From a virus (Duplodnaviria; Heunggongvirae; Uroviricota; Caudoviricetes): a stretch of 43,036 nt of DNA. How positions within the stretch are numbered: position 1 is the first letter of the stretch; each line of letters begins with the position of its first letter. The DNA lies in the IMG/VR virus record IMGVR_UViG_2671180804_000003, positions 1-43,036 of that record; one strand, written 5' to 3'. Made by a program: the position numbers and the translations under genes. Of the stretch, positions 4,736-32,216 are shown piece by piece. The notes beneath the pieces were generated by a model that was given only the letters and a program-made list of their open reading frames with translations, searched no databases and was not told the DNA's origin.

Positions 4736-5817
4736 GTATTGAATCCCGCCAGGTTCTGGTAGAAGGCATATGGCTGAACGGAGAATGCTTCAGGCGGCAT
4801 CAGCGTCATGCGTGCATGGGTGCCGTAGTCATCGCGCATATAGGTGACTTCTGCCAGTAGCAATTCAGTCTTCGGCAACCGTAAGGTGGGAAGATCAACG
4901 GGGATCAATGTGTTTGGTTCCCACAGTTTCCCGTCTTTATCCCGCCAGGAATCGATGGTTACCGAGAGCTGTTTTGAACGTCCGTACCGCCGGTTCATTT
5001 CCCAGTCGATCGCACTTTGTGCCTGTTGAGTAGCCATCAGGGTACTTTCCACAATCGATATATGTTTTCGGTACCGCATGCGGGCGGCCTCCGGATCTCT
5101 CGCCGTTGCCAGAGTCACAGCGTCATAGGCCGTATCAGGCGAATACCCTGCAATTGGAGAAACGCTCATTGATACACCGACATAATCTGAAAACCTGTCA
5201 GCCATCGATTTGCGGTAGTATGCCTGCTCGACATTTACCCCTTCGGCTATCCCACTTGCCGCACGACGTGTTCCCACCCGGGTCAGTAACAGGTTTCCAT
5301 CGGGCTGATCGTAGTAAAGCAGAGCAGACCATCTGGCCACCCGATCGATGACTTCTTGCGGAGACTCACCCCAGTTCAGAGTGAACTGGGGTACCTTCAC
5401 AAGTTCATCAACATCCGTGGTTACGGTGATGCCGTAGTAGGATGCCAGGCGAGAAGCAATTTCAAGCGCATTACTGGCATTGATGACGTTGTTAGGCCAC
5501 TCGGCTGAGCAATCCACCAGGTCCTGACATTTGCTCCTGCCCGTGGCGCGGACCTCATGGCGGGAGCGCGATAGTGCGGGTTCCCAGTCATCAACATATC
5601 CCGTCAGTGTCAGATCATCTCCGATACGAACTTCACAAGACATTCCCTCTTCAACGAGTTGACGATCTTCGTTGCCAGGGAAGTAATCCATTAGCCCAAG
5701 ATCGAAATCAGAGGGAAAACGCTCAATACCCCGCGTTACCCGGACAGAATCCCACCCCTCGATGATTTTGCCGTCGACCGTCAAAGAAACAACATCCAGA
5801 TCGCTGTCTGCATTCAT
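4732..5817 (-). CDS. Baseplate hub / tail protein (Mu gp44-like, late control D family)
   Basis: 361 aa; synteny downstream of DNA circularisation protein. Confidence 0.65.
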   Translation of the reverse strand: MNADSDLDVVSLTVDGKIIEGWDSVRVTRGIERFPSDFDLGLMDYFPGNEDRQLVEEGMSCEVRIGDDLTLTGYVDDWEPALSRSRHEVRATGRSKCQDLVDCSAEWPNNVINASNALEIASRLASYYGITVTTDVDELVKVPQFTLNWGESPQEVIDRVARWSALLYYDQPDGNLLLTRVGTRRAASGIAEGVNVEQAYYRKSMADRFSDYVGVSMSVSPIAGYSPDTAYDAVTLATARDPEAARMRYRKHISIVESTLMATQQAQSAIDWEMNRRYGRSKQLSVTIDSWRDKDGKLWEPNTLIPVDLPTLRLPKTELLLAEVTYMRDDYGTHARMTLMPPEAFSVQPYAFYQNLAGFNT

Positions 5818-7220
5818 TGCCTCAGTACCTTCATGGTTGTCGGCATAAACGCCGGATGCGGTACGCGCGCTTCCTGTACCAGTTCATCTGCACGGGTGGC
5901 ATCCTGGTATAATCGGTTTGCCAGCGTCAGCGCCGGAAGCGGCTGAGCGGTAGTAACCTGCAGAAGCTCGCTCAGACCAGAAGCACGCTCACTCATCGTA
6001 GAAAGGAATGCCGATCTGACGGCGAGAAGCGCGTTATACATATCATCGTCTGCGCGGTCTCCAGCCAGAACCAGCGCCGTATCAAGTTGCACAGAAACTC
6101 GTTGAGTTAACTCTTCTGCCTCGTCTGTACTGGCTGGTCTGGAGTCCGCAGCGGCACTGGTCATGGCACCAGTACATAGCACAACAATCAGCGTGTTCAT
6201 GGTCGCCGAAATCGCTTTGCTGCTGTCGGACTGCTGGTACTCCGTGCTGATTGAATTAGCCAGTTTTTCCAGCGCTGTGATTCGGTCATTAACGCTGCCG
6301 GCGCTGTTAAGAATTGCGTTTACCACGTCGGCGACGCCCTGGACAAACTCATCAGGTGTGTTGGAGCTGCTAAGCTGGCTCGACCTGTCGGTAACATTTT
6401 TCCGGTCCATTACCGACTGGGCTGTTACCTTGTCAGCCAGTGCTCTCTCATCATCCACATCAGCAACTGACGATTTGCCAGCAACAGCAGAGGAACTACC
6501 GCCCACAGAGCCTTTACTGTAACGTCCGTACCGGGTATTCCCGAACGTGGAGTTCAGGACATTGCTGAGATTCGTGACCTGACTGATGGTGCTGTCAACC
6601 ATGTTAGTCCAGAACGTGACCGTGCCTCTGATGGTGTTTATAGCCTGTGTGACACCGCGGATTTCACTCTTAACTCTGGCAATCGTGCTCAGCACAGCAG
6701 TGCTGACCAGTTTCAGATAGTTGGTTTTCACCGTGGCGCCTGCAACGGTACTGCCCGTGACAGCAAACACTTTAAGCCCTGATTCAATTGCCATCAGGGT
6801 AAATTCAAATACTCGCCCGTTCTCCATCGAACCGGAAATACGCAAACCATTCTCAGGGATGGAAACCGTTAATTCGCCCAGTGTCGGATGGACAAGCGTA
6901 CCGCTACCTTTTTGTTCACAGGCTTCAATCAGTGACTGGCGCTGCGTGATAGCATCGCCGCCGCCGTAAACCTGGCTGTTCTGGATCAAGAAACCGCGAA
7001 TAACAAATCGCCGTGTTGCCCGCCCGATATCCTCTATCCAGGCTGTATCACGGTAGGGATATTCATGTACCGCCTGGCGTCGGCCGTGGCTCCCTTCCTC
7101 AGCAACAATTGCAAATGGCACACCTCTGAATGAGCTGGGCCGTAACTGCCCCTGCCAGTCATCGCTGGTATCTCCCCCCAAAAGAGAAGTTATTGCGTCC
7201 TGGATAATTGACGGCATCAC
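5814..7220 (-). CDS. DNA circularisation protein N-terminal family tail protein (Mu gp43-like)
   Basis: 468 aa; follows tape measure gene; GTG-ATG start preceded by GGAGG. Confidence 0.65.
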   Translation of the reverse strand: MMPSIIQDAITSLLGGDTSDDWQGQLRPSSFRGVPFAIVAEEGSHGRRQAVHEYPYRDTAWIEDIGRATRRFVIRGFLIQNSQVYGGGDAITQRQSLIEACEQKGSGTLVHPTLGELTVSIPENGLRISGSMENGRVFEFTLMAIESGLKVFAVTGSTVAGATVKTNYLKLVSTAVLSTIARVKSEIRGVTQAINTIRGTVTFWTNMVDSTISQVTNLSNVLNSTFGNTRYGRYSKGSVGGSSSAVAGKSSVADVDDERALADKVTAQSVMDRKNVTDRSSQLSSSNTPDEFVQGVADVVNAILNSAGSVNDRITALEKLANSISTEYQQSDSSKAISATMNTLIVVLCTGAMTSAAADSRPASTDEAEELTQRVSVQLDTALVLAGDRADDDMYNALLAVRSAFLSTMSERASGLSELLQVTTAQPLPALTLANRLYQDATRADELVQEARVPHPAFMPTTMKVLRQ

Positions 7221-22216: not shown

Positions 22217-22678
22217 TCAATTTAAGCACTGCTCTTTGATGTATTCCTGCAAATATCCAACCTGTTTCGTCACTGTGACGATTCGCTCTCTGAGGGTGAA
22301 ATAATCCCGTTCAGCGGAGTCAGTAAGTCGGGGGCCGGTAACATCGCCCAGGCCGCCGGTGCTGGTCGCTCCGTTCGCGGGACATCTGGCGTTGACGTGC
22401 AGCCCACACTTGCCAGTGCGAACACAACGCTGCAAATCATCAAGCTGCTTTTTAGCATCAGCTAAGTCCTTCGTGTATTTGGCATCCAGCACCGCTGCAT
22501 CACGCTGGCGGATCTGCATGTCTTTGATGGTGGCGTTCGCCTGGTTAAGATTCTTAATGGCTTTATCGCGCTGGTCTTTGTAGGTGATGGCGTTGCCGCG
22601 GTAGTGGTTAATAGCCCAAGCCATGGAAACCATCAGGCAGATAACGACAGCACAGATAATTGCTGTTAATCGGCTCAC
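22217..22678 (-). CDS. Rz: Spanin inner-membrane subunit Rz
   Basis: Close similarity to lambda Rz ([23 protein letters not shown]); GTG start overlaps endolysin stop. Confidence 0.8.
22270..22458 (-). CDS. Rz1: Spanin outer-membrane lipoprotein Rz1 (embedded in Rz, +1 frame)
   Basis: 62 aa, lipobox-like SVGC, Pro-rich, C-terminus [11 protein letters not shown] as in lambda Rz1. Confidence 0.75.
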
Positions 22679-23214
22679 TAATCTAACCCCCAACACGCCA
22701 GCGCGCTTTCCTGGTCCCGTCTCTCAACCTGACCATAGCAGCCATTCTTCTGGCCTTTGGTTAGTCGGCAATCGCGGCCACCGTCTTTGATCCACCAGCG
22801 GATTGCTTCACATGCCCCTTTACGATCACCGGCGTTGATGCGTTTATAAAAGGTAGAAGGGAAGCATTTACCAGGACCAATGTTGTACGGGCAGAATGAG
22901 GCAATCCCCGCTTTCTGCGGTTCGGTCAGTGGTACCTGGATATTGCGGTCGACCCAAGCCAGCGCCTTGTTCAGCTCGCTGGCGTTCACCTGATTACATT
23001 TCTCTGGCGATAGCCTCATACCTGGGGTAACAGGCTTGCCGTCAACCGTGGTAGCTCCCCGGCAAATCGTCCAGATACCGCTGCCATCTTTGTACGCTGT
23101 AAGGCTGTTTCCCTCTTTCTCATTCAGAAACTGATCGAGAATGACGGATGCTGGCGCACCAGCAAGTACCAACCCCAGAACAGCAGCACTTAATTTTGCT
23201 CTGGATCCCATCAC
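22678..23214 (-). CDS. SAR endolysin (T4-lysozyme-like muramidase with N-terminal signal-anchor)
   Basis: Hydrophobic Gly/Ala-rich N-terminus then E..YKD..G.WT.C.G catalytic region; resembles phage 21 R. Confidence 0.8.
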
Positions 23215-23513
23215 TCACCTTCCTTTTGTAATGCCTCAACGACCACGCTTGCAGCCGCAGGACGTTCGTGAAGGGGTTTATCACCAACGCCTTTCAGGTA
23301 GTCATTAACCATTTTTGTTCGCTTCTCGTCCTCTCTACGCCTGCGGTGGGCATCCACGCGACCATTGACATAGGAGGCAAACGAGATAAGCAGACCAGCG
23401 GCGCCAAAGAACATGAACACCATATCCTGAGTGGTAAAACCAATGGCTGACGCCAGAGCTGCTACCCACGCGAAGAACTGCGTGAAAATGTTCCCTGAAT
23501 CATTCATTTTCAT
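23211..23513 (-). CDS. Holin (likely pinholin partner of SAR endolysin)
   Basis: 100 aa, two hydrophobic segments then charged C-terminus; first gene of lysis cassette. Confidence 0.65.
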   Translation of the reverse strand: MKMNDSGNIFTQFFAWVAALASAIGFTTQDMVFMFFGAAGLLISFASYVNGRVDAHRRRREDEKRTKMVNDYLKGVGDKPLHERPAAASVVVEALQKEGE

Positions 23514-23581: not shown

Positions 23582-24634
23582 TTATTCCCCTGTTAACGCC
23601 CTTATTTCCTCCACCGTCTGGCTAAACCTGTCCTCCTCGAGTTCAACGCCGATAGCCTGGCGGCCAAGTTCCAGCGCGATTTTCACGGTCGAACCGGACC
23701 CCATAAAGAAATCAGCCACCACATCACTAGGCTTACTGCTGGCGTTGATGATCTGCCGCAACATGTCAGCGGGTTTTTCGCATGGGTGTTTACCTGGGTA
23801 AAACTGAACGGGTTTATGTGTCCAGACGTCGGTATAAGGAACGGATACGGAAACAGAGAAATGCCGCCGAAGCGATTTGTACTCTTCGAGCAGCTCTGAA
23901 TACTTGCGATTTAACGAATGCCACATAGCCACCAGCTGGTGGTGTGGTGTTGCCAGTTCGCCGTTCTGGTGCTTTTCGATGGCTACCTGCGTGAAAAGGG
24001 ACTGAAGATTCCGGTAGTCTGATTCATTCGGTAATTGCCACTGGCTACCGCTGAACCAGTGAGACACCATGTTCTTCTTTCCAGTCGCATCGGCTATTTG
24101 TTTTGAGGTTATGCCAAGCGCTTCACGTGCATCCCGGAAATAAGAAATTAGGGGAGTCATTACATGCTGCTTCAGCTCGCTTCCCTTCTCCGCGTAACCG
24201 TCGCTCTTTGGTTTATACGGCCCCTGGTAATGCTCAGCGAAGAGGATGCGCTCTGTTGCAGGGAAGTAAGAGCGCAGACTCTCTTTATTACAGCCATTCC
24301 AGCGGCCCGACGGTTTAGCCCAGATGATGTGGTTCAGGACGTTGAACCGCTCACGCATCATGATCTCAATGTCTGCCGCCAGGCGGTGACCGGAGAAAAG
24401 ATAAAGACTGCCAGCAGGTTTAAGCACTCGCCAGAATTGTGCGAGGCACATATCAAGCCAGCGAAGATAATCCTCATCCCCTTTCCACTGATTGTCCCAG
24501 CCGTTGGGTTTCACTTTGAAGTACGGCGGATCCGTGACTATCAGGTCAATGGAGTTATCAGGGAGAGTGGCGATGTATTGCAGGCTATCAGCGTTGACTA
24601 ACTCAACACTGTTTATATTTACAGTATTTTTCAT
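23582..24634 (-). CDS. DNA methyltransferase, beta-class amino-MTase (N6-adenine or N4-cytosine)
   Basis: DPPY motif near N-terminus (LIVTDPPYF) and FxGxG (FFMGSGST) near C-terminus. Confidence 0.85.
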   Translation of the reverse strand: MKNTVNINSVELVNADSLQYIATLPDNSIDLIVTDPPYFKVKPNGWDNQWKGDEDYLRWLDMCLAQFWRVLKPAGSLYLFSGHRLAADIEIMMRERFNVLNHIIWAKPSGRWNGCNKESLRSYFPATERILFAEHYQGPYKPKSDGYAEKGSELKQHVMTPLISYFRDAREALGITSKQIADATGKKNMVSHWFSGSQWQLPNESDYRNLQSLFTQVAIEKHQNGELATPHHQLVAMWHSLNRKYSELLEEYKSLRRHFSVSVSVPYTDVWTHKPVQFYPGKHPCEKPADMLRQIINASSKPSDVVADFFMGSGSTVKIALELGRQAIGVELEEDRFSQTVEEIRALTGE

Positions 24635-24803
24635 AGATCAATAAGCGTAACTCTGATAGGCTCTCTTTGCTTTTGCGCTAAAGCAATGGGCCTTGGTTAG
24701 CTTGTGACCTGAAAGCATGAGCTGATGGCTGGTGGGTGCTCCAACATCCACCAGCCGCCCATTTTCACAGCAAAATACCTCCGAAATGGAGGTGCGAAGG
24801 CAT

Positions 24804-24826
24804 AAAAAAACCCCGCTTAAGCGAGG
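24804..24826 (-). terminator. Rho-independent terminator ending the two-gene cassette
   Basis: Forward AAAAAAACCCCGCTTAAGCGAGG; on minus strand a GC stem followed by T7, about 20 bp after stop of 24844-25248. Confidence 0.5.
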
Positions 24827-24843
24827 TTATTTCGAATAGATAA

Positions 24844-25248
24844 TCAAGCAGCAGGTTCGGATGGATAAACCTGCTCATACATCTGCTGAAGGGTGTCAAT
24901 AGCTTTGTTAGCCATTATCAATATAGCTTCCGCATCAGCCTTACTTAAAGTTCTATCAAGCTCGTAATCTGCCCATTTACGTCGGGTATGCAAATGTCTC
25001 AGCATTGTTCCCATAGAAATGAGTTTCATTTTTTCAAACGGCTCATTTCCTTTTAACCATGCATCATTTGTAAGATAGTCGCGAACAGCTTGGTGTGACG
25101 ACTTGTTTGGGCATTTCTCAAGCTTATCAAGCGTTTCATGATAAACTCCATAATACGCTCGACCAATGGCGTTTCTGTAACCGATTTCATCGTTGTGAGA
25201 AATGCATTTACCAGCAAAAACAATAAAATCTTTCCCCGATACGCTCAT
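24844..25248 (-). CDS. HEPN-like small protein (putative RNase-type toxin/effector)
   Basis: 134 aa; RAYYGVYH (R-x6-H) in a predicted first helix plus RRKWADYE, resembling HEPN hallmarks; AT-rich; start overlaps upstream stop (ATGA). Confidence 0.5.
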   Translation of the reverse strand: MSVSGKDFIVFAGKCISHNDEIGYRNAIGRAYYGVYHETLDKLEKCPNKSSHQAVRDYLTNDAWLKGNEPFEKMKLISMGTMLRHLHTRRKWADYELDRTLSKADAEAILIMANKAIDTLQQMYEQVYPSEPAA

Positions 25249-26003
25249 CAGTAAATCCCTCTTTTTTCATCGCTTTGAAACCAGGATGTAAAAGGGCTGT
25301 TCCGATAACTATCATCTGAGAGCAAAACCAACAGTTCCATGTTCATTTCAGCTAAAACCTGCGGATCAGCAGTTTGGGCTCTAACGATGAATGCATTGTC
25401 ATCATCTCCACCAAGATAATAGCTAACACTTGAACAGTTAATACCGCGCTTGTTCGCAATCTCTTCAGCTTGATCGCAAAGGGCTTCTAGTTCTCGAGAA
25501 GAAAGACGGGTAGCGTTTTTGAAATCAACAATCTGTTCAGCCATATAATTTCCCTGATTGATTATATCCTCTCGCTCTTGGCCATCATAAAGAGCAGCCA
25601 TTTTGAGGGAGAACTTTTTAACCAACTTGTCGTTGCCGATACAAAATGCAGCGTTTCTTGCTACAAGCCTCAGTTCATGTGAAGGGAAAAGCTCAACTAT
25701 TCTAAACAACTCAACGCGATGCTCATAGTTATGAGCCGAACGAGAAAGATACGCCAAGTAGTTTTGTGCGATCGTTGGACTCCCAGAGCTCATCGCGTCT
25801 TTGAATAAACGTACTGCATCAGAGTGACGCCCGAGAGTTCCATTAAGCCATGCATACGCATGTGCGCGCTCACTTATTGGAAGTTTAGCAATGTCGCGCT
25901 CAATTTCCGCAATAGTGTCTGTATCCGGGACTTCTCCCTTCTGGAAGTAATCGAGGATTGTTGCAAGCAGTTCTTGTTCTTTTGACTCAGGCTGTCCTGA
26001 CAT
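25248..26003 (-). CDS. Hypothetical helical protein, partner of HEPN-like gene
   Basis: About 251 aa from MSGQPESK; no recognisable catalytic motif; translationally coupled to downstream gene. Confidence 0.55.
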   Translation of the reverse strand: MSGQPESKEQELLATILDYFQKGEVPDTDTIAEIERDIAKLPISERAHAYAWLNGTLGRHSDAVRLFKDAMSSGSPTIAQNYLAYLSRSAHNYEHRVELFRIVELFPSHELRLVARNAAFCIGNDKLVKKFSLKMAALYDGQEREDIINQGNYMAEQIVDFKNATRLSSRELEALCDQAEEIANKRGINCSSVSYYLGGDDDNAFIVRAQTADPQVLAEMNMELLVLLSDDSYRNSPFTSWFQSDEKRGIY

Positions 26004-26124
26004 AATTTTCCCGAAGAAAACCAAATTCTGTATGTTTTCAATAGCTTCACTGGATAGGTTTTTATATTGCTGTCATCAGTATTGAAGCTTTTACGGGATT
26101 GTACAGGACCATCAGCGTTCTACT

Positions 26125-26228
26125 TGTGCATAAGAATTTAATAAACCTACAGACTTATCCACAGAAAAAAGAGTTATCAACAAAAAAAGTTATTCACAAC
26201 TTAACTAATAGCAAAATATTGTTGATAA
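26125..26228. promoter_or_regulatory. Cluster of DnaA-box-like 9-mers in cassette upstream region
   Basis: TTATCCACA (26155-63), TTATTCACA (26190-98), TTATGCACA on minus (26125-33), plus two TTATCAACA variants. Confidence 0.4.
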
Positions 26229-26350
26229 GCTGTGCGTAATTATCATATCCATCAAACTTACGCACATTAGAGCCTTGTGTTGCCTATCCATCGTTTTTTC
26301 CTATCAAAACGAAACGACATGCTTTTCTGCGATTAAAAAAGTATTCCGCA

Positions 26351-26378
26351 AAATTAAAAAACCCGCTCACTGGCGGGT
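26351..26378 (-). terminator. Rho-independent terminator downstream of Q-like gene (tR'-like)
   Basis: Forward AAATTAAAAAACCCGCTCACTGGCGGGTTT; on minus strand a CCCGC/GCGGG stem followed by TTTTTTAATTT. Confidence 0.55.
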
Positions 26379-26472
26379 TTATATACTGTTGGCAACATAT
26401 CAAATTAGCTTCAAATATCGCTTATTTTGTTGCATTTTGCAAGCCCAATTGAGGGAGTTAGTGAAAGTTATC

Positions 26473-27165
26473 TCACATTTCCGCCACTTTGAGTTCTTGG
26501 TACTCTTCGTACCGTGACAAAATTTCGCTTAGTGCCTGGCTGTCCATTTCTGCAAACGACGCTTTGAAAGCCGCCCAGTGGCCTGAATACACTCTGAGCC
26601 AGGTGGAACGCTCAACGCTGACCATGCGCGCCAGAGCTGCTCCAGCATACTCCTGATAGGTATCGTTATTACGCGAGGCAGCAACTTCTTGCGCCGCCAG
26701 CCAGACAAGCCCTATCAGTTTTTTAGTGACACGGCCCTGTATTTTTTTGCCGCTATGCTGACGCTGAAATTGTTCCCACACGTACTGGCACATTAACGTC
26801 TGGTACCGGAAGGTCAGGTCATACCCATAGCAATACCGCACCCATGCCTGCAAATGCTCCCCCAGACCATTCACCGACCGACGCCATGCTGAACAAGCGA
26901 ACTCCGTATCCTTAATAGGCGGTAAAGGTCGGCGACGGCTCCTTGTCTCAAGAACATAAAGCGGAGTGGCCAGAGTTTTTACAACCTTCGATCCACAACC
27001 TTCCCCACCTTCCATGACGATTTCAGGATGGTGCCGGGGGTATTTGTTCTTATCTGCTGGTGGATGCTCACTGAACGCCTGCAGCTGTCCTTTTGTCGAA
27101 CCTGATAAATCCGCCAGCGCTCGGCGCAGTTCAATCCGCGTATATTCCAGTTCTTGTAAATTCAT
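26473..27165 (-). CDS. Putative late-gene antiterminator (Q-like)
   Basis: Position immediately upstream of terminator and late genes; Cys-containing 230-aa protein; family assignment tentative. Confidence 0.45.
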   Translation of the reverse strand: MNLQELEYTRIELRRALADLSGSTKGQLQAFSEHPPADKNKYPRHHPEIVMEGGEGCGSKVVKTLATPLYVLETRSRRRPLPPIKDTEFACSAWRRSVNGLGEHLQAWVRYCYGYDLTFRYQTLMCQYVWEQFQRQHSGKKIQGRVTKKLIGLVWLAAQEVAASRNNDTYQEYAGAALARMVSVERSTWLRVYSGHWAAFKASFAEMDSQALSEILSRYEEYQELKVAEM

Positions 27166-27186
27166 TATGCTCAGCGCTCCATACAA

Positions 27187-28951: not shown

Positions 28952-30889
28952 TCAGGCGGCTGCACCCGCCTTTTGATTTGCACATAATTCAGGAAGATTT
29001 GCTTCTACCAGCGCACGAGCGAACGGCGGCGGTACTGCGTTACCACAGCGCGCTACCTGCTTGTCTTTGGCGTAACGATTGCCGCGATAGTCCTGATCGA
29101 TAACGTAGCCGTCAGGGAAGCCCTGCGCCTTATAAAGCTCATGCGGTTGCAGCATGCGCATTCCGATATCGACGATCTGGTACTTAACCCCCTCGATCGT
29201 CACCAGCCATTCATCCTCGCTATCACCGCAGTAGGTTTCGAGGAATGTCCGGACCTCGCCAACGTGCTGGCCACCAGCGGTAATCGTCGGCATAGGTGTA
29301 TCCATGGTCTGACCGTCGCGGCAGGTTCCGCGCAGCTTCACCAGGTGCGACGCAACTACCGCGTGGTGATCAACAGTAGTGACTGAGTGGGCAGGCTCAT
29401 CCATACCAACACCCGGCCCCGTGTAATTCCCACCATAGTGCTTCGCCAGGAACGCGCTCACCGTTGCAAACTTATTACCACCAGCAGTGACCGTGCCGAG
29501 CGGGTTATTCAGTTGAAGAACACGCGGTTCTTGCCCTGGGCGTTCGCCGTACCCCATCTGGATCAGTGTTGGAGTTACCAGCTGCGACTTACCGCCACCA
29601 CCTGCAGTAATCGTCGCACTCGGTTCGTCAGCCCTGTGCCCAACACTGGCTCCAAACTGGCGGGCGATGACCGGCGCAACCACGCACGCGCGGGACTGCT
29701 TGAGGATTGTATGAGCGGGTTTATCCAGCGGGCGCGGCTTTGCCTGGTACTCACTGCCGCCATTGCCAGCCAGGAACGGTGTCAGGGCGGCCTCAACTAC
29801 GCCAAGCGCATGCCCATTCCCGCCCGGGCGCGCCGACGTACCAGCGGTGACAGTTGGTACCGGCTCGGTCACTGGCTGCCCGGTGGCCCCGGTGCGGAAT
29901 TTAGTAAGATGCGGTACCGCCAGTGCGTAGCCATGCTTTTTAGTGATGGTCTGCAATGGCTCTAACAACGATTGCCCGCGGAAACAGTCATAACCTCCTT
30001 TCGTCGTGGTGTGGTTACACTTCACGATGAAAGGTGATGCGCTTTCGATAACAAAGCGCTGGATGCCGCGCGCGATACGTTTGAGCGTATTTTCCGCCAG
30101 CGGCTTTTTGCGGTCGAAGATGGACCGGGCCGGGATATTCCAGTCAATGCACTCCGCCGCGGTACGCCATGGCGCCAGCTTGCCGCTTTGTACTTCCAGT
30201 GATTTTGGATCCCCATGAGTCGCTTCAGGCCAATGAATCTTGCGGCCGTCACAGCGCATGACCATGAAGAAACGCTTTCTGATCGTCGGCGCGCCGTAGT
30301 CACATGCGCGCAGCTCCCGATAATCAACCTCATAACCAAGCCCGGCGATCAGCTGTTGCGCCTGCTGGCCGTGCGGCTCAATGGCAAGGAATTCACAAAC
30401 CTCAGCCAGCGCAGGGTGATTCGCCGCGATCCCCGTCGACAGCATGCCGACAAATGCCTCGAATGTTTCGCCAGCACGCTCAGGATCTGGGCGTAATTCT
30501 TCATCCAGCAGCGGGCCCCATGTCTTAAACTCTTCGACGTTCTCCAGCATCATGACGCGGGGACGTACTGCCAGCGCCCAGCGCAGGACAATCCACGCCA
30601 GCCCGCGAATCTCTTTCTTAACCGGCTTAGCGCCCTTCGCCTTGGAAAAGTGGCGGCAGTCAGGGCTAAACCAGGCCAGACCGACAGGTTTACCGCTGGT
30701 GGCTGCGCTTGGGTCAACGTCAAACACCGACTCGCAATAATGCAGCGTGTCAGGGTGATTCGTCTTATGCATCGCAATAGCGTTTTCGTCGTGGTTGATA
30801 GCGATATCCACGCTACGCCCGATCGCCAGTTCAATGCCGGTACTCGCGCCGCCGCCACCAGCAAAGTTATCAACGATAATTTCACGCAT
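28952..30889 (-). CDS. DNA (cytosine-5)-methyltransferase
   Basis: Motif I DNFAGGGG, PC motif FSPDCRHFS, ENV motif MLENVEEF; start at MREIIVDNF. Confidence 0.85.
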   Translation of the reverse strand: MREIIVDNFAGGGGASTGIELAIGRSVDIAINHDENAIAMHKTNHPDTLHYCESVFDVDPSAATSGKPVGLAWFSPDCRHFSKAKGAKPVKKEIRGLAWIVLRWALAVRPRVMMLENVEEFKTWGPLLDEELRPDPERAGETFEAFVGMLSTGIAANHPALAEVCEFLAIEPHGQQAQQLIAGLGYEVDYRELRACDYGAPTIRKRFFMVMRCDGRKIHWPEATHGDPKSLEVQSGKLAPWRTAAECIDWNIPARSIFDRKKPLAENTLKRIARGIQRFVIESASPFIVKCNHTTTKGGYDCFRGQSLLEPLQTITKKHGYALAVPHLTKFRTGATGQPVTEPVPTVTAGTSARPGGNGHALGVVEAALTPFLAGNGGSEYQAKPRPLDKPAHTILKQSRACVVAPVIARQFGASVGHRADEPSATITAGGGGKSQLVTPTLIQMGYGERPGQEPRVLQLNNPLGTVTAGGNKFATVSAFLAKHYGGNYTGPGVGMDEPAHSVTTVDHHAVVASHLVKLRGTCRDGQTMDTPMPTITAGGQHVGEVRTFLETYCGDSEDEWLVTIEGVKYQIVDIGMRMLQPHELYKAQGFPDGYVIDQDYRGNRYAKDKQVARCGNAVPPPFARALVEANLPELCANQKAGAAA

Positions 30890-32216
30890 TGACGGCCCCC
30901 TGCATGCTGTTGAAGAGACCACCAGCGGTCGTGATAATTTCACTCGTCGGCATACGTTCGAGCCACAGCTGGTTGATATTGGCTTTCAGCTTGTTCTGCT
31001 GCGAAACAGGTAGAGCGTCAGCCCCTTCAATCTGGTTAAACACCAGTCCAACCTCAAGAGGCCAAACGCGCGATTCGTTTAACGCCTTGTCCTTTGATTC
31101 CTGCGTCTCACGGACATGGGCGCGGATCCCCCGAATATTTGACCATTTGGCTTTATCCAGGCTTTCCATGGTCGCGATGAATTCACTGTGGTTAATGCCG
31201 TATTCTTTCGCAGACTCAACGGCAACCGTGCGTAACCGCTCTGACATGTCTTGTTTCACGTCATCGCTATCAAAGGGCAATGTTTCCAGCCATGCATTAA
31301 CACCCACCAGGATGCTCTCGCTGATCAGCTTTTTCGCTCTGTCGATCGTCAGCGGTGAAACATTGGTAAATTCAGGGTTTTCCAGAGAGTCGGCAGCCCA
31401 GGTATGACCAAACTTTGACTCGCTGAAGGTGTACTCGTCTTTCTTGCCGAACGCCGCGACAACACAGGCCCAAGCCTCTACACCGCTGGTTTCCAGAATG
31501 GCTTTTTGGGTTAATGGCAGTTCTGCCTCTGATTTCTCCGGCACTACCTCAGCGTCCAGCTCCGGCGCCGCATCAGTTTGCGTTCTTCCCACGGCAAATT
31601 GGGCCAGCGACATCGCAGCACGGCCTTTGGCCTCCAGGTCGGTGCGGTTGATGTAACTGAAACGCTCACCCCGCCATGTTTTGTCGAAGACCACGATAGC
31701 GCCAGCAAAAAATGCGCTGGTGGGCTGCTGCTTTTCGTCTTTCGGCACGAACCATGTAGGAAGATCGAAACCAATTCGGCCACGGATGAATGTGACGTGA
31801 TCTGCCTCTACCGGCCACCACGTTTCACTCGTCGCAGACTTAATGAGAAAAACGTACCGACCACCCTTTTCTCGCATGGCCATAGCGTGGTTAATGATGT
31901 GGGTCATTCCGGTAACGGCCTGCTTGTCGTGGTACTGAGAGCGGCTGTAAGGCGGGTTGCCAAACCCGGCACCACCGAGTTCTGCCAGCCGCTCTGACCA
32001 ATCCTGCGTCAGGGCATTATCTTCAGCCGTGTACCATGCTGGGCACTTCGCGTTGCTGTCGTCGGCAAAAAGGTCCAACACCAGAGGGCCGAACATCGCA
32101 TTGATCCCCCAAAACAACAGATCCGGAGTGCGCCATTGATCACCGACCTCTTTCAACTCGTGTGCTGGTTTTGAACGGAGTTCAGCCAGTGCACGGCAGT
32201 ATTTATTTTCCATCAT
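30882..32216 (-). CDS. Phage Dam-type N6-adenine methyltransferase with about 250-aa C-terminal extension of unknown function
   Basis: N-terminal W.TP..LF and GFGNPPYS motif typical of phage Dam family; C-terminal half unassigned. Confidence 0.65.
   Translation of the reverse strand: MMENKYCRALAELRSKPAHELKEVGDQWRTPDLLFWGINAMFGPLVLDLFADDSNAKCPAWYTAEDNALTQDWSERLAELGGAGFGNPPYSRSQYHDKQAVTGMTHIINHAMAMREKGGRYVFLIKSATSETWWPVEADHVTFIRGRIGFDLPTWFVPKDEKQQPTSAFFAGAIVVFDKTWRGERFSYINRTDLEAKGRAAMSLAQFAVGRTQTDAAPELDAEVVPEKSEAELPLTQKAILETSGVEAWACVVAAFGKKDEYTFSESKFGHTWAADSLENPEFTNVSPLTIDRAKKLISESILVGVNAWLETLPFDSDDVKQDMSERLRTVAVESAKEYGINHSEFIATMESLDKAKWSNIRGIRAHVRETQESKDKALNESRVWPLEVGLVFNQIEGADALPVSQQNKLKANINQLWLERMPTSEIITTAGGLFNSMQGAVNA

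Follow-up and report, generated by a model that had tools for sequence, protein, structure and literature searches.

The 43,036-nucleotide stretch of viral DNA analyzed here (positions 1 to 43,036 of IMG/VR record IMGVR_UViG_2671180804_000003; the whole stretch is called the window below) is a lambdoid prophage with an identical RefSeq locus in E. coli ECONIH4. It contains a cassette of two tandem minus-strand genes, A and B, located between the terminator of the antitermination gene Q and a DNA methylase gene with the lysis genes. Gene A (25248-26003) encodes a protein of 251 amino acids when read from an ATG codon, which is the start annotated in RefSeq and the position at which its homologues begin; an alternative TTG start would extend the frame to 25248-26024 and the protein to 258 residues. 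Gene B (24844-25248) encodes a 134-residue AF0298/UPF0332-like HEPN protein, modelled as a five-helix bundle. Both proteins are labelled 'hypothetical' in the ECONIH4 RefSeq annotation.

A translationally coupled, AT-rich cassette

The original prediction, made by a model that read the letters of the window, described two translationally coupled minus-strand genes of about 251 and 134 amino acids, and the open reading frames (ORFs) lie where it placed them. It was mistaken about the junction: instead of sharing an ATGA at 25248, the two genes have a single nucleotide in common there, where A stops and B starts (TAC-TGATG-AGC). The coupling itself is real. As had also been noticed, the cassette is richer in AT than its flanks. 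Its GC content is 0.427, versus 0.511 for the window, 0.517 for the Q gene and 0.505 for the methylase gene, and ranks 20th lowest among 838 sliding windows of equal size; between A and the Q gene (26025-26472) the value is 0.344.

The cassette has the downstream terminator attributed to it, an intrinsic-terminator-like hairpin with a T-run located directly after B on the minus strand (24801-24828; stem 24828-24809, 8 pairs, then TTTTTTTATGCC). At its other end, A is preceded by an AT-rich leader (26025-26358, minus strand) and by a second terminator-like hairpin with a T-run (26359-26380, minus strand), which lies 93 nucleotides past the Q stop codon and is probably a tR′-type terminator overridden by Q. 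An Rfam scan of 24400-26600 returned zero families at the gathering score, on which ground a non-coding RNA in the leader or the cassette was ruled out.

Protein B has a HEPN fold and falls in the AF0298-like branch

Searched alone, B matches only PHROG 5176 (function unknown) and none of the Pfam or NCBIfam models. Its structure model, computed with an alignment of 24 homologues, is confident (predicted local distance difference test score, pLDDT, of 93.7) and consists of five helices, and a Foldseek search with this model ranks HEPN domains first, although weakly. A profile built from 18 diverse members of the B family and compared with PDB chains using HMMER matches 9xbd with an E value of 5.9e-11 and 2hsb (AF0298) with an E value of 5.6e-7. 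Furthermore, the Pfam HEPN family PF05168 is reached by 8 of the 24 close homologues, and relatives of B are named 'HEPN domain-containing' or 'UPF0332' in some database sources, the JGI name being UPF0332. The PADLOC model HEPN_IX is matched by 7 of the 18 family members (best E value 3.5e-7), but not by the B protein of the window itself.

The model displays the features of a HEPN fold, namely a four-helix up-down core, interrupted by an insert after helix 2, that can be superposed on solved HEPN domains. B also displays those of the AF0298/UPF0332-like HEPN-T group, in which the arginine of the motif is kept, the histidine of the motif has given way to D or Y, and an alternative histidine is conserved. 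B is thus a HEPN protein, as the suggestion of a HEPN-like small protein had it, and falls in the AF0298-like branch; the sequence relationships make it probable that it belongs to the same non-canonical HEPN lineage as the HEPN protein of type IX retrons.

The solved protein closest to B by sequence is 9xbd_A/9xbc_A, which is unpublished, bears the name 'HEPN domain-containing protein' and was deposited both as the wild type and as a Tyr-to-Phe variant at the equivalent of Y95 (RNRSDY versus RNRSDF). The existence of this pair suggests that the depositors consider that tyrosine functionally important. A literature search on 9xbd/9xbc and UPF0332 found no paper.

A conserved histidine and arginine mark a candidate active site

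Twelve residues are invariant in the 18 diverse B proteins, the identity of which drops to 27%: E21, R25, R30, Y32, Y33, H37, H52, L83, R90, D94, Y95 and L97. The canonical Rx4-6H site of HEPN nucleases is found at the end of core helix 3. Its counterpart in B is R90-K-W-A-D94-Y95 (codons at 24964-24981, minus strand), in which the histidine is replaced, and none of the 18 members carries a histidine four to six residues past R90, so that B lacks the canonical HEPN nuclease motif. R90, D94 and Y95 align with RNRSDY of 9xbd, with REESDY of AF0298 and with R122-GIVDY of the HEPN protein of Retron-Kva2.

Two segments had been singled out as reminiscent of HEPN ribonuclease (RNase) motifs, and their fates differ. 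RRKWADYE (residues 89-96) does contain the motif position, albeit without the histidine. RAYYGVYH (residues 30-37; codons of R30-AYYGVY-H37 at 25138-25161, minus strand) is real and conserved, but it forms a stripe on helix α2, within the helix that spans residues 21-42 of the model, and is not the catalytic motif. This stripe aligns with SRAYYAMFY of 9xbd, in which a tyrosine takes the place of H37, and with STAYYAMFH of AF0298; its position on helix 2 and the tyrosine in 9xbd rule it out as an Rx6H motif.

In AbiV and the AF0298-like HEPN-T proteins, the arginine is kept, an aspartate replaces the histidine, and an alternative conserved histidine is contributed by the insert between helices 2 and 3 (PMC3710099). 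Judging by the alignment, this alternative histidine in B is H52 (codon at 25093-25095, minus strand), the invariant residue that we consider the candidate alternative catalytic histidine. H52 aligns with the histidine of 'TH' in AF0298, of 'SH' in 9xbd, and with H64 of the Retron-Kva2 HEPN protein, in which either H64A or R122A abolishes both toxicity and defence (bioRxiv 10.64898/2026.07.14.738597). The catalytic pair of B is, by this comparison, likely to be H52 and R90, as in AF0298-like and retron type IX HEPNs.

Protein A is a TPR-like protein with no sign of an active site

The sole match of A is PHROG 17809 (function unknown). Its structure model (pLDDT 86.8) begins with eight paired TPR-like helices (about residues 8-136), continues with a pair of long helices (141-184), and ends in a C-terminal β-β-α-β domain (190-244). 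The N-terminal half has the hallmarks of a TPR array, namely tandem helix-turn-helix repeats of about 34 residues with TPR matches at both the profile and the structure level, and a profile of the diverse A family matches TPR chains with an E value of about 6e-4.

Only N81, A183, N221 and F242 are invariant across 18 diverse members of the A family, which has no conserved sequence block and in which conserved catalytic residues were not found. Nor was a nucleotidyltransferase seen in A. An HMMER scan of 1.84 billion representatives returned 71 clusters of A, nearly all of them full length at about 250-260 amino acids, and none of the 71 contains a fusion of A to another domain. The earlier view that the larger partner has no catalytic motif and is not a minimal nucleotidyltransferase (MNT) is borne out by this lack of conserved catalytic residues and by the TPR-like fold, and A looks like a binding or scaffold protein, neither an enzyme nor an MNT.

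A and B form an obligate pair in temperate phages

A scan of IMG/VR identified 201 viral contigs with a relative of B, and 80 of these loci were retrieved. An A-like ORF is positioned directly 5′ of B in all 80, as well as in all 16 other contexts inspected, which answers the question of co-occurrence raised along with the original prediction. Not a single MNT partner was seen in these about 96 loci, in keeping with the claim that this is no standard HEPN-MNT pair. The junctions between the two genes range from a 38-nucleotide overlap to a 10-nucleotide gap, the commonest being a 4-nucleotide overlap (the relatives do use ATGA), and both ORFs are intact in the 80 loci, contig edges excepted. 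Across 78 comparisons, the identity between two A proteins tracks that between their B partners (Pearson 0.87), with A evolving faster, and the GC content of the cassette is below that of the surrounding locus in 13 of 13 loci. Temperate phages thus carry the two genes as an obligate pair.

Among 5426 complete E. coli genomes, just 12 contain the cassette of the window at 99% identity or more. Megablast against sequenced phages matches only a region of about 100 nucleotides upstream of the methylase, and tblastn with A finds no match in 50,697 phage records. The A partners in three sequenced phages (Klebsiella phage Chronis, Klebsiella phage ST405-OXA48phi1.3 and a Vibrio P2-like phage) are too distant for BLAST, but are related to A in a profile-profile comparison (98.9% probability, E value 1.7e-17, 239 columns).

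A sibling variant of the cassette (locus L022, from other E. coli genomes) is matched by CRISPR spacers. Type I-E spacers 100% identical to it are present in 146 of the 5426 complete E. coli genomes, and not one of the 5426 carries the variant itself. One protospacer is located in gene A (protospacer-adjacent motif, PAM, ATG) and one in gene B (PAM AAG), the positions in L022 being 5587-5619 and 6019-6051. The window variant differs from these protospacers at 9 of 33 and 13 of 33 positions and is thus unmatched by those spacers. In the one array inspected (L027:985-1745, 12 spacers), only spacer 9 matches the phage DNA that was compared.

The pair occupies different accessory slots in unrelated phages

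The slot between Q and the lysis genes hosts the pair in four lambdoid backbones. In Morganella, the order is Q, the pair and a holin, and the Q protein of this relative carries PF06323; in a second E. coli lineage, a PF03589 antiterminator is followed by the pair and lysis genes; and Enterobacter ludwigii has the pair in a lambdoid prophage. In the Mu-like prophages of Aeromonas and Pseudaeromonas, the pair is flanked by Mor and an endolysin. Elsewhere, it adjoins int (Hafnia), occupies a prophage end next to the host focA/ccm genes (Erwinia and a related contig), lies near tail-fibre and umuDC-like genes (Enterobacter SA187), or is found between tail genes and an Arc/Ant immunity region (a 4.1-Mb genome). 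Among sequenced phages, Klebsiella phage Chronis encodes the pair as gp57/gp58 in its nin region, and the Vibrio P2-like phage has it between the late control gene B/ogr and the replication gene A. The latter slot presumably corresponds to the old/tin defence hotspot of the P2 map, and P2 hotspots are, reportedly in the work of Rousset et al., reservoirs of antiviral systems. The pair is also present in Klebsiella phage ST405-OXA48phi1.3, where a frameshift has split B into two short ORFs (L024:3553-3896) and the upstream A is intact, a decay opposite to the losses of A described below.

The cargo nature of the slot in the window, between the Q terminator and the methylase and lysis genes, had been anticipated and is confirmed by a related prophage of E. 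coli Nissle 1917, which has kept Q and the same methylase but carries other genes between them, so that the slot is variable. There, the region equivalent to window positions 24700-26470 (L009:5086-6564) holds the gene of an SDH-family Clp-fold serine protease with small hypothetical genes on its two sides, another set of cargo in this hotspot. The Aeromonas veronii Mu-like prophage contains, about 1.2 kb upstream of A-B and on the opposite strand, a gene for a 271-residue TIR_2-domain protein between GemA and Mor (L018:3212-4027), possibly another defence gene in the accessory region that holds the pair.

The frequent place of the pair between a late activator (Q or Mor) and lysis genes, which recurs in unrelated lambdoid and Mu-like backbones, would be explained if B were an inactive HEPN-fold binder of RNA or protein that serves, together with A, the late programme of the phage, for instance late mRNA or the timing of lysis. 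The absence of the canonical Rx4-6H motif from B and of an own promoter from the window copy (see below) would fit such a role. However, other copies of the pair lie away from lysis genes, where they adjoin int, sit at tail-fibre ends or occupy the nin region or the P2-like slot; its occurrence in 12 of 5426 E. coli genomes and the other cargo of Nissle 1917 point to a dispensable cassette; the conserved histidine and arginine match a validated nuclease site; and a strong promoter of its own accompanies it in 19 of 91 relatives. With these points on the two sides, we judge a late-programme function quite unlikely.

Many copies have a promoter-like element of their own

In 19 of 91 regions upstream of A (loci L005, L008, L013, L014 and L022 and 14 IMG/VR loci), there is a conserved element with the make-up of a strong extended −10 promoter, GTGACA-N16-TGnTAnAAT. 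It always lies 98-110 nucleotides before the start codon of A, in Q-slot and prophage-end contexts alike. Its position leaves a leader of about 100 nucleotides. More generally, the best promoter score reaches 10/13 or higher in 42 of the 91 upstream regions, versus 8.7% of shuffles. Many copies of the pair thus travel with their own promoter, in the manner of a moron.

These promoters bear on the idea that A-B is a counter-defence device or an inter-phage weapon of lytic growth, which would act as an RNase or a decoy against host immune RNAs, co-resident phages or satellites. Transcription of the pair with the late genes in several phages speaks for this idea, and genes for anti-defence, like those for defence, are housed in the variable slots of phages. 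Late expression, however, would be poor timing for counter-defence, the prophage-end locations with own promoters fit expression in the lysogen, and no similarity to known anti-defence proteins was seen in Pfam, PHROGs, NCBIfam or the PDB. A role of this kind is highly improbable in our estimation.

A model for A-B function

Starting from the fold, family, conserved site, linkage and genomic locations observed above, and reasoning by analogy with Retron-Kva2, HEPN-MNT and RnlAB as to activity, binding, gating, trigger and phenotype, we put forward the following model. The cassette would be a mobile two-gene module of temperate phages, in which B is a dimeric AF0298-like HEPN ribonuclease with an active site formed by H52 and R90, D94 and Y95 adjoining R90. 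A, a non-enzymatic TPR-like protein that translational coupling would supply at a fixed ratio to B, would bind B and, in the lysogen, block its active site until some trigger releases or activates it. The trigger could be a protein of a superinfecting phage that binds to the TPR surface or, alternatively, the loss of a less stable A once host gene expression has been shut off. B, now active, would cleave RNA of the cell (tRNA, rRNA or mRNA), leading to a growth stop and to an aborted infection.

We consider the chances about even that A-B is a partner-gated, non-canonical HEPN RNase module with a role in abortive infection or as a toxin-antitoxin system. The pointers to defence are indirect, namely the accessory slots, the P2-like one among them, and the HEPN type of effector. 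A more specific version, in which A-B is an undescribed two-gene abortive-infection system that (i) uses a TPR sensor of phage proteins to gate a His...Arg HEPN RNase, (ii) has spread via the lambdoid, Mu-like and P2-like accessory hotspots of Gammaproteobacteria, and (iii) exemplifies an AF0298-like core that has come under no fewer than three unrelated kinds of control (MNT, retron multicopy single-stranded DNA (msDNA) plus winged-helix (WH) protein, and TPR), is offered more tentatively.

Several observations weigh against this model. The first concerns expression, as no strong σ70 promoter was detected upstream of A in the window copy. Promoter-like matches there agree at only 8 of 12 positions, the best score being 8/13, and since such matches are no better than those in shuffles, an own promoter for this copy was ruled out; it has either lost the GTGACA-N16-TGnTAnAAT element or never had one. 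A weak match, TTGCAA-N17-GATATT at 26442-26414, is what we infer to be a candidate pR′. Positioned behind the hairpin that follows this pR′-like site, and with no promoter, the window copy may be transcribed mainly by Q-dependent read-through, and may then be expressed mainly late in the lytic cycle and not in the lysogen. Second, the profile of B matches the Retron-Kva2 HEPN chain 36ht_I only weakly on its own (E value 0.58 with HMMER), although H64 and R122 fall on H52 and R90 in this alignment. Third, A is damaged in two places where B is intact. In one E. coli assembly (L020:5237-5330), codon 14 of A is a stop codon (GAG to TAG), with a restart ORF of 224 amino acids remaining. In Enterobacter sp. 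SA187, a 1-nucleotide insertion in an A-run shifts the frame of A in one of two assemblies (L012 versus L013 at about 5535), a difference in a homopolymer that may be a sequencing error. If real, these cases mean that B is not lethal without full-length A, and they caution against a strict picture of a lethal toxin with an essential antitoxin.

The same cases bear on a plain type II toxin-antitoxin addiction pair, in which a labile A would neutralize the toxin B and stabilize the prophage without any sensing of phages. Two features would be expected of such a system: as in HEPN-MNT modules, the gene of the HEPN-T type protein comes second, coupled in translation to that of its partner, and mobile elements spread the two genes together. 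On the other hand, A is about twice the size of a typical antitoxin and has no DNA-binding domain for autoregulation, its TPR scaffold suits the sensing of a ligand or a protein, several copies reside in a late-transcribed slot, and there are the genomes with a stop codon or a frameshift in A next to an intact B. We regard a pure addiction pair as unlikely.

Other features of the prophage

The genes that surround the cassette are known from the RefSeq annotation of the identical ECONIH4 locus, in which the order is Ant, DUF968, Q, A, B, DNA methyltransferase, a holin-sized ORF, lysozyme, a lysis protein, and the terminase and head genes. The Q gene occupies 26473-27186 and the DNA methyltransferase gene 23582-24634, both on the minus strand. 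The methyltransferase is followed by the holin-sized ORF, the lysozyme and Rz (22217-23513, minus strand), where 'holin-sized' is our own reading of a hypothetical protein. A 62-residue ORF with a lipobox-like LASVGC sequence (22270-22458, minus strand) is contained in another frame inside the Rz-like gene (22217-22696, minus strand), which is the classic arrangement of an embedded Rz1 (o-spanin). Farther away, the ORF of a 663-residue DNA cytosine methyltransferase (28952-30943, minus strand) is open in the window, and its ECONIH4 RefSeq counterpart is flagged 'frameshifted'. Together with two adenine methylases, this brings the DNA methyltransferase genes of the prophage to three.

Comparison with known systems

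Neither A nor B reaches significance with the PADLOC 2.0 models, and a search of the DefensePredictor supplements, some of which were covered in part only, found neither WP_000116520 nor WP_053266456, nor the sequence motifs of these proteins. DefensePredictor does include DS-28, a validated anti-phage system of E. coli that likewise consists of a small HEPN protein and a hypothetical partner, of 252 amino acids. Unlike B, however, the DS-28 HEPN protein carries a canonical motif (RNSVAH), and the gene order is reversed; identity with DS-28 was ruled out, as neither of its proteins shows detectable similarity in sequence to A or B.

Other HEPN systems differ from A-B in their architecture. In the RnlA-RnlB and LsoA-LsoB pairs, RnlA and LsoA combine several domains and carry canonical HEPN motifs, the antitoxins are small and not of the TPR type, and there is no sequence relationship. 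HepS of Gifsy-1, Tha and AbiV are prophage-encoded abortive-infection systems that consist of one self-sensing protein, whereas A-B has a separate obligate TPR partner. HepS, in addition, has a canonical RX4-6H motif and no partner, and identity with it was ruled out on the grounds that it is a single protein with the canonical motif in a different slot.

The HEPN-MNT toxin-antitoxin module (PADLOC candidate PDC-M05) contains a HEPN-T protein of the same AF0298/UPF0332-like type (PF05168), but its partner is an MNT, whereas here it is a 251-residue protein with a TPR array and an α/β part. With no minimal nucleotidyltransferase (PF01909-type, hG[GS]...DxD) adjacent to B, A-B was rejected as a module of this kind, and neutralization by AMPylation is not expected. 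The hosts differ too, being mainly archaea and thermophiles for HEPN-MNT and temperate phages of Gammaproteobacteria for A-B.

The most instructive comparison is with type IX retrons. Their HEPN effector has been modelled on 2hsb and noted to lack the histidine of the motif (PMC7736814). In Retron-Kva2, the HEPN protein alone arrests growth and cleaves rRNAs and tRNAs, and its site is sterically closed by the partner WH protein and msDNA (bioRxiv 10.64898/2026.07.14.738597). Like B, it is a non-canonical HEPN protein without Rx4-6H, in which H64 and R122 correspond to H52 and R90 and the arginine is followed by DY; 2hsb is the closest structural template of both; and the product of an overlapping gene keeps the nuclease in check, as A is proposed to do with B. 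Unlike A-B, Retron-Kva2 includes a reverse transcriptase (RT), a non-coding RNA and msDNA, its partner is a winged-helix and not a TPR-like protein, the gene order is the reverse of the partner-then-HEPN order of A-B, and the HEPN protein has 174 amino acids versus the 134 of B. A profile of A does not match the Retron-Kva2 WH chain. Kinship of B with the type IX retron HEPN family would entail a HEPN_IX match, seen in 7 of the 18 family members but not in the B protein of the window, and a catalytic histidine and arginine on core helices 3 and 4. As a retron, A-B was rejected, with no RT ORF annotated among the neighbours and no Rfam family reaching its gathering score in 24400-26600.

If B is active, then A-B would provide prophages with immunity or a toxin in a compact format of 1.2 kb and place a HEPN nuclease under a new kind of regulator, and its TPR partner would represent a third control logic on the AF0298-like HEPN core, beside AMPylation by an MNT and occlusion by retron msDNA and a WH protein. 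It would also give a function to two 'unknown' PHROG families, 5176 and 17809, that are found in at least 201 viral contigs. With the catalytic candidates H52 and R90 and the partner defined, the hypothesis is directly testable. HEPN effectors are already known from prophage defence and toxin-antitoxin modules; what is new in A-B is the obligate TPR partner.

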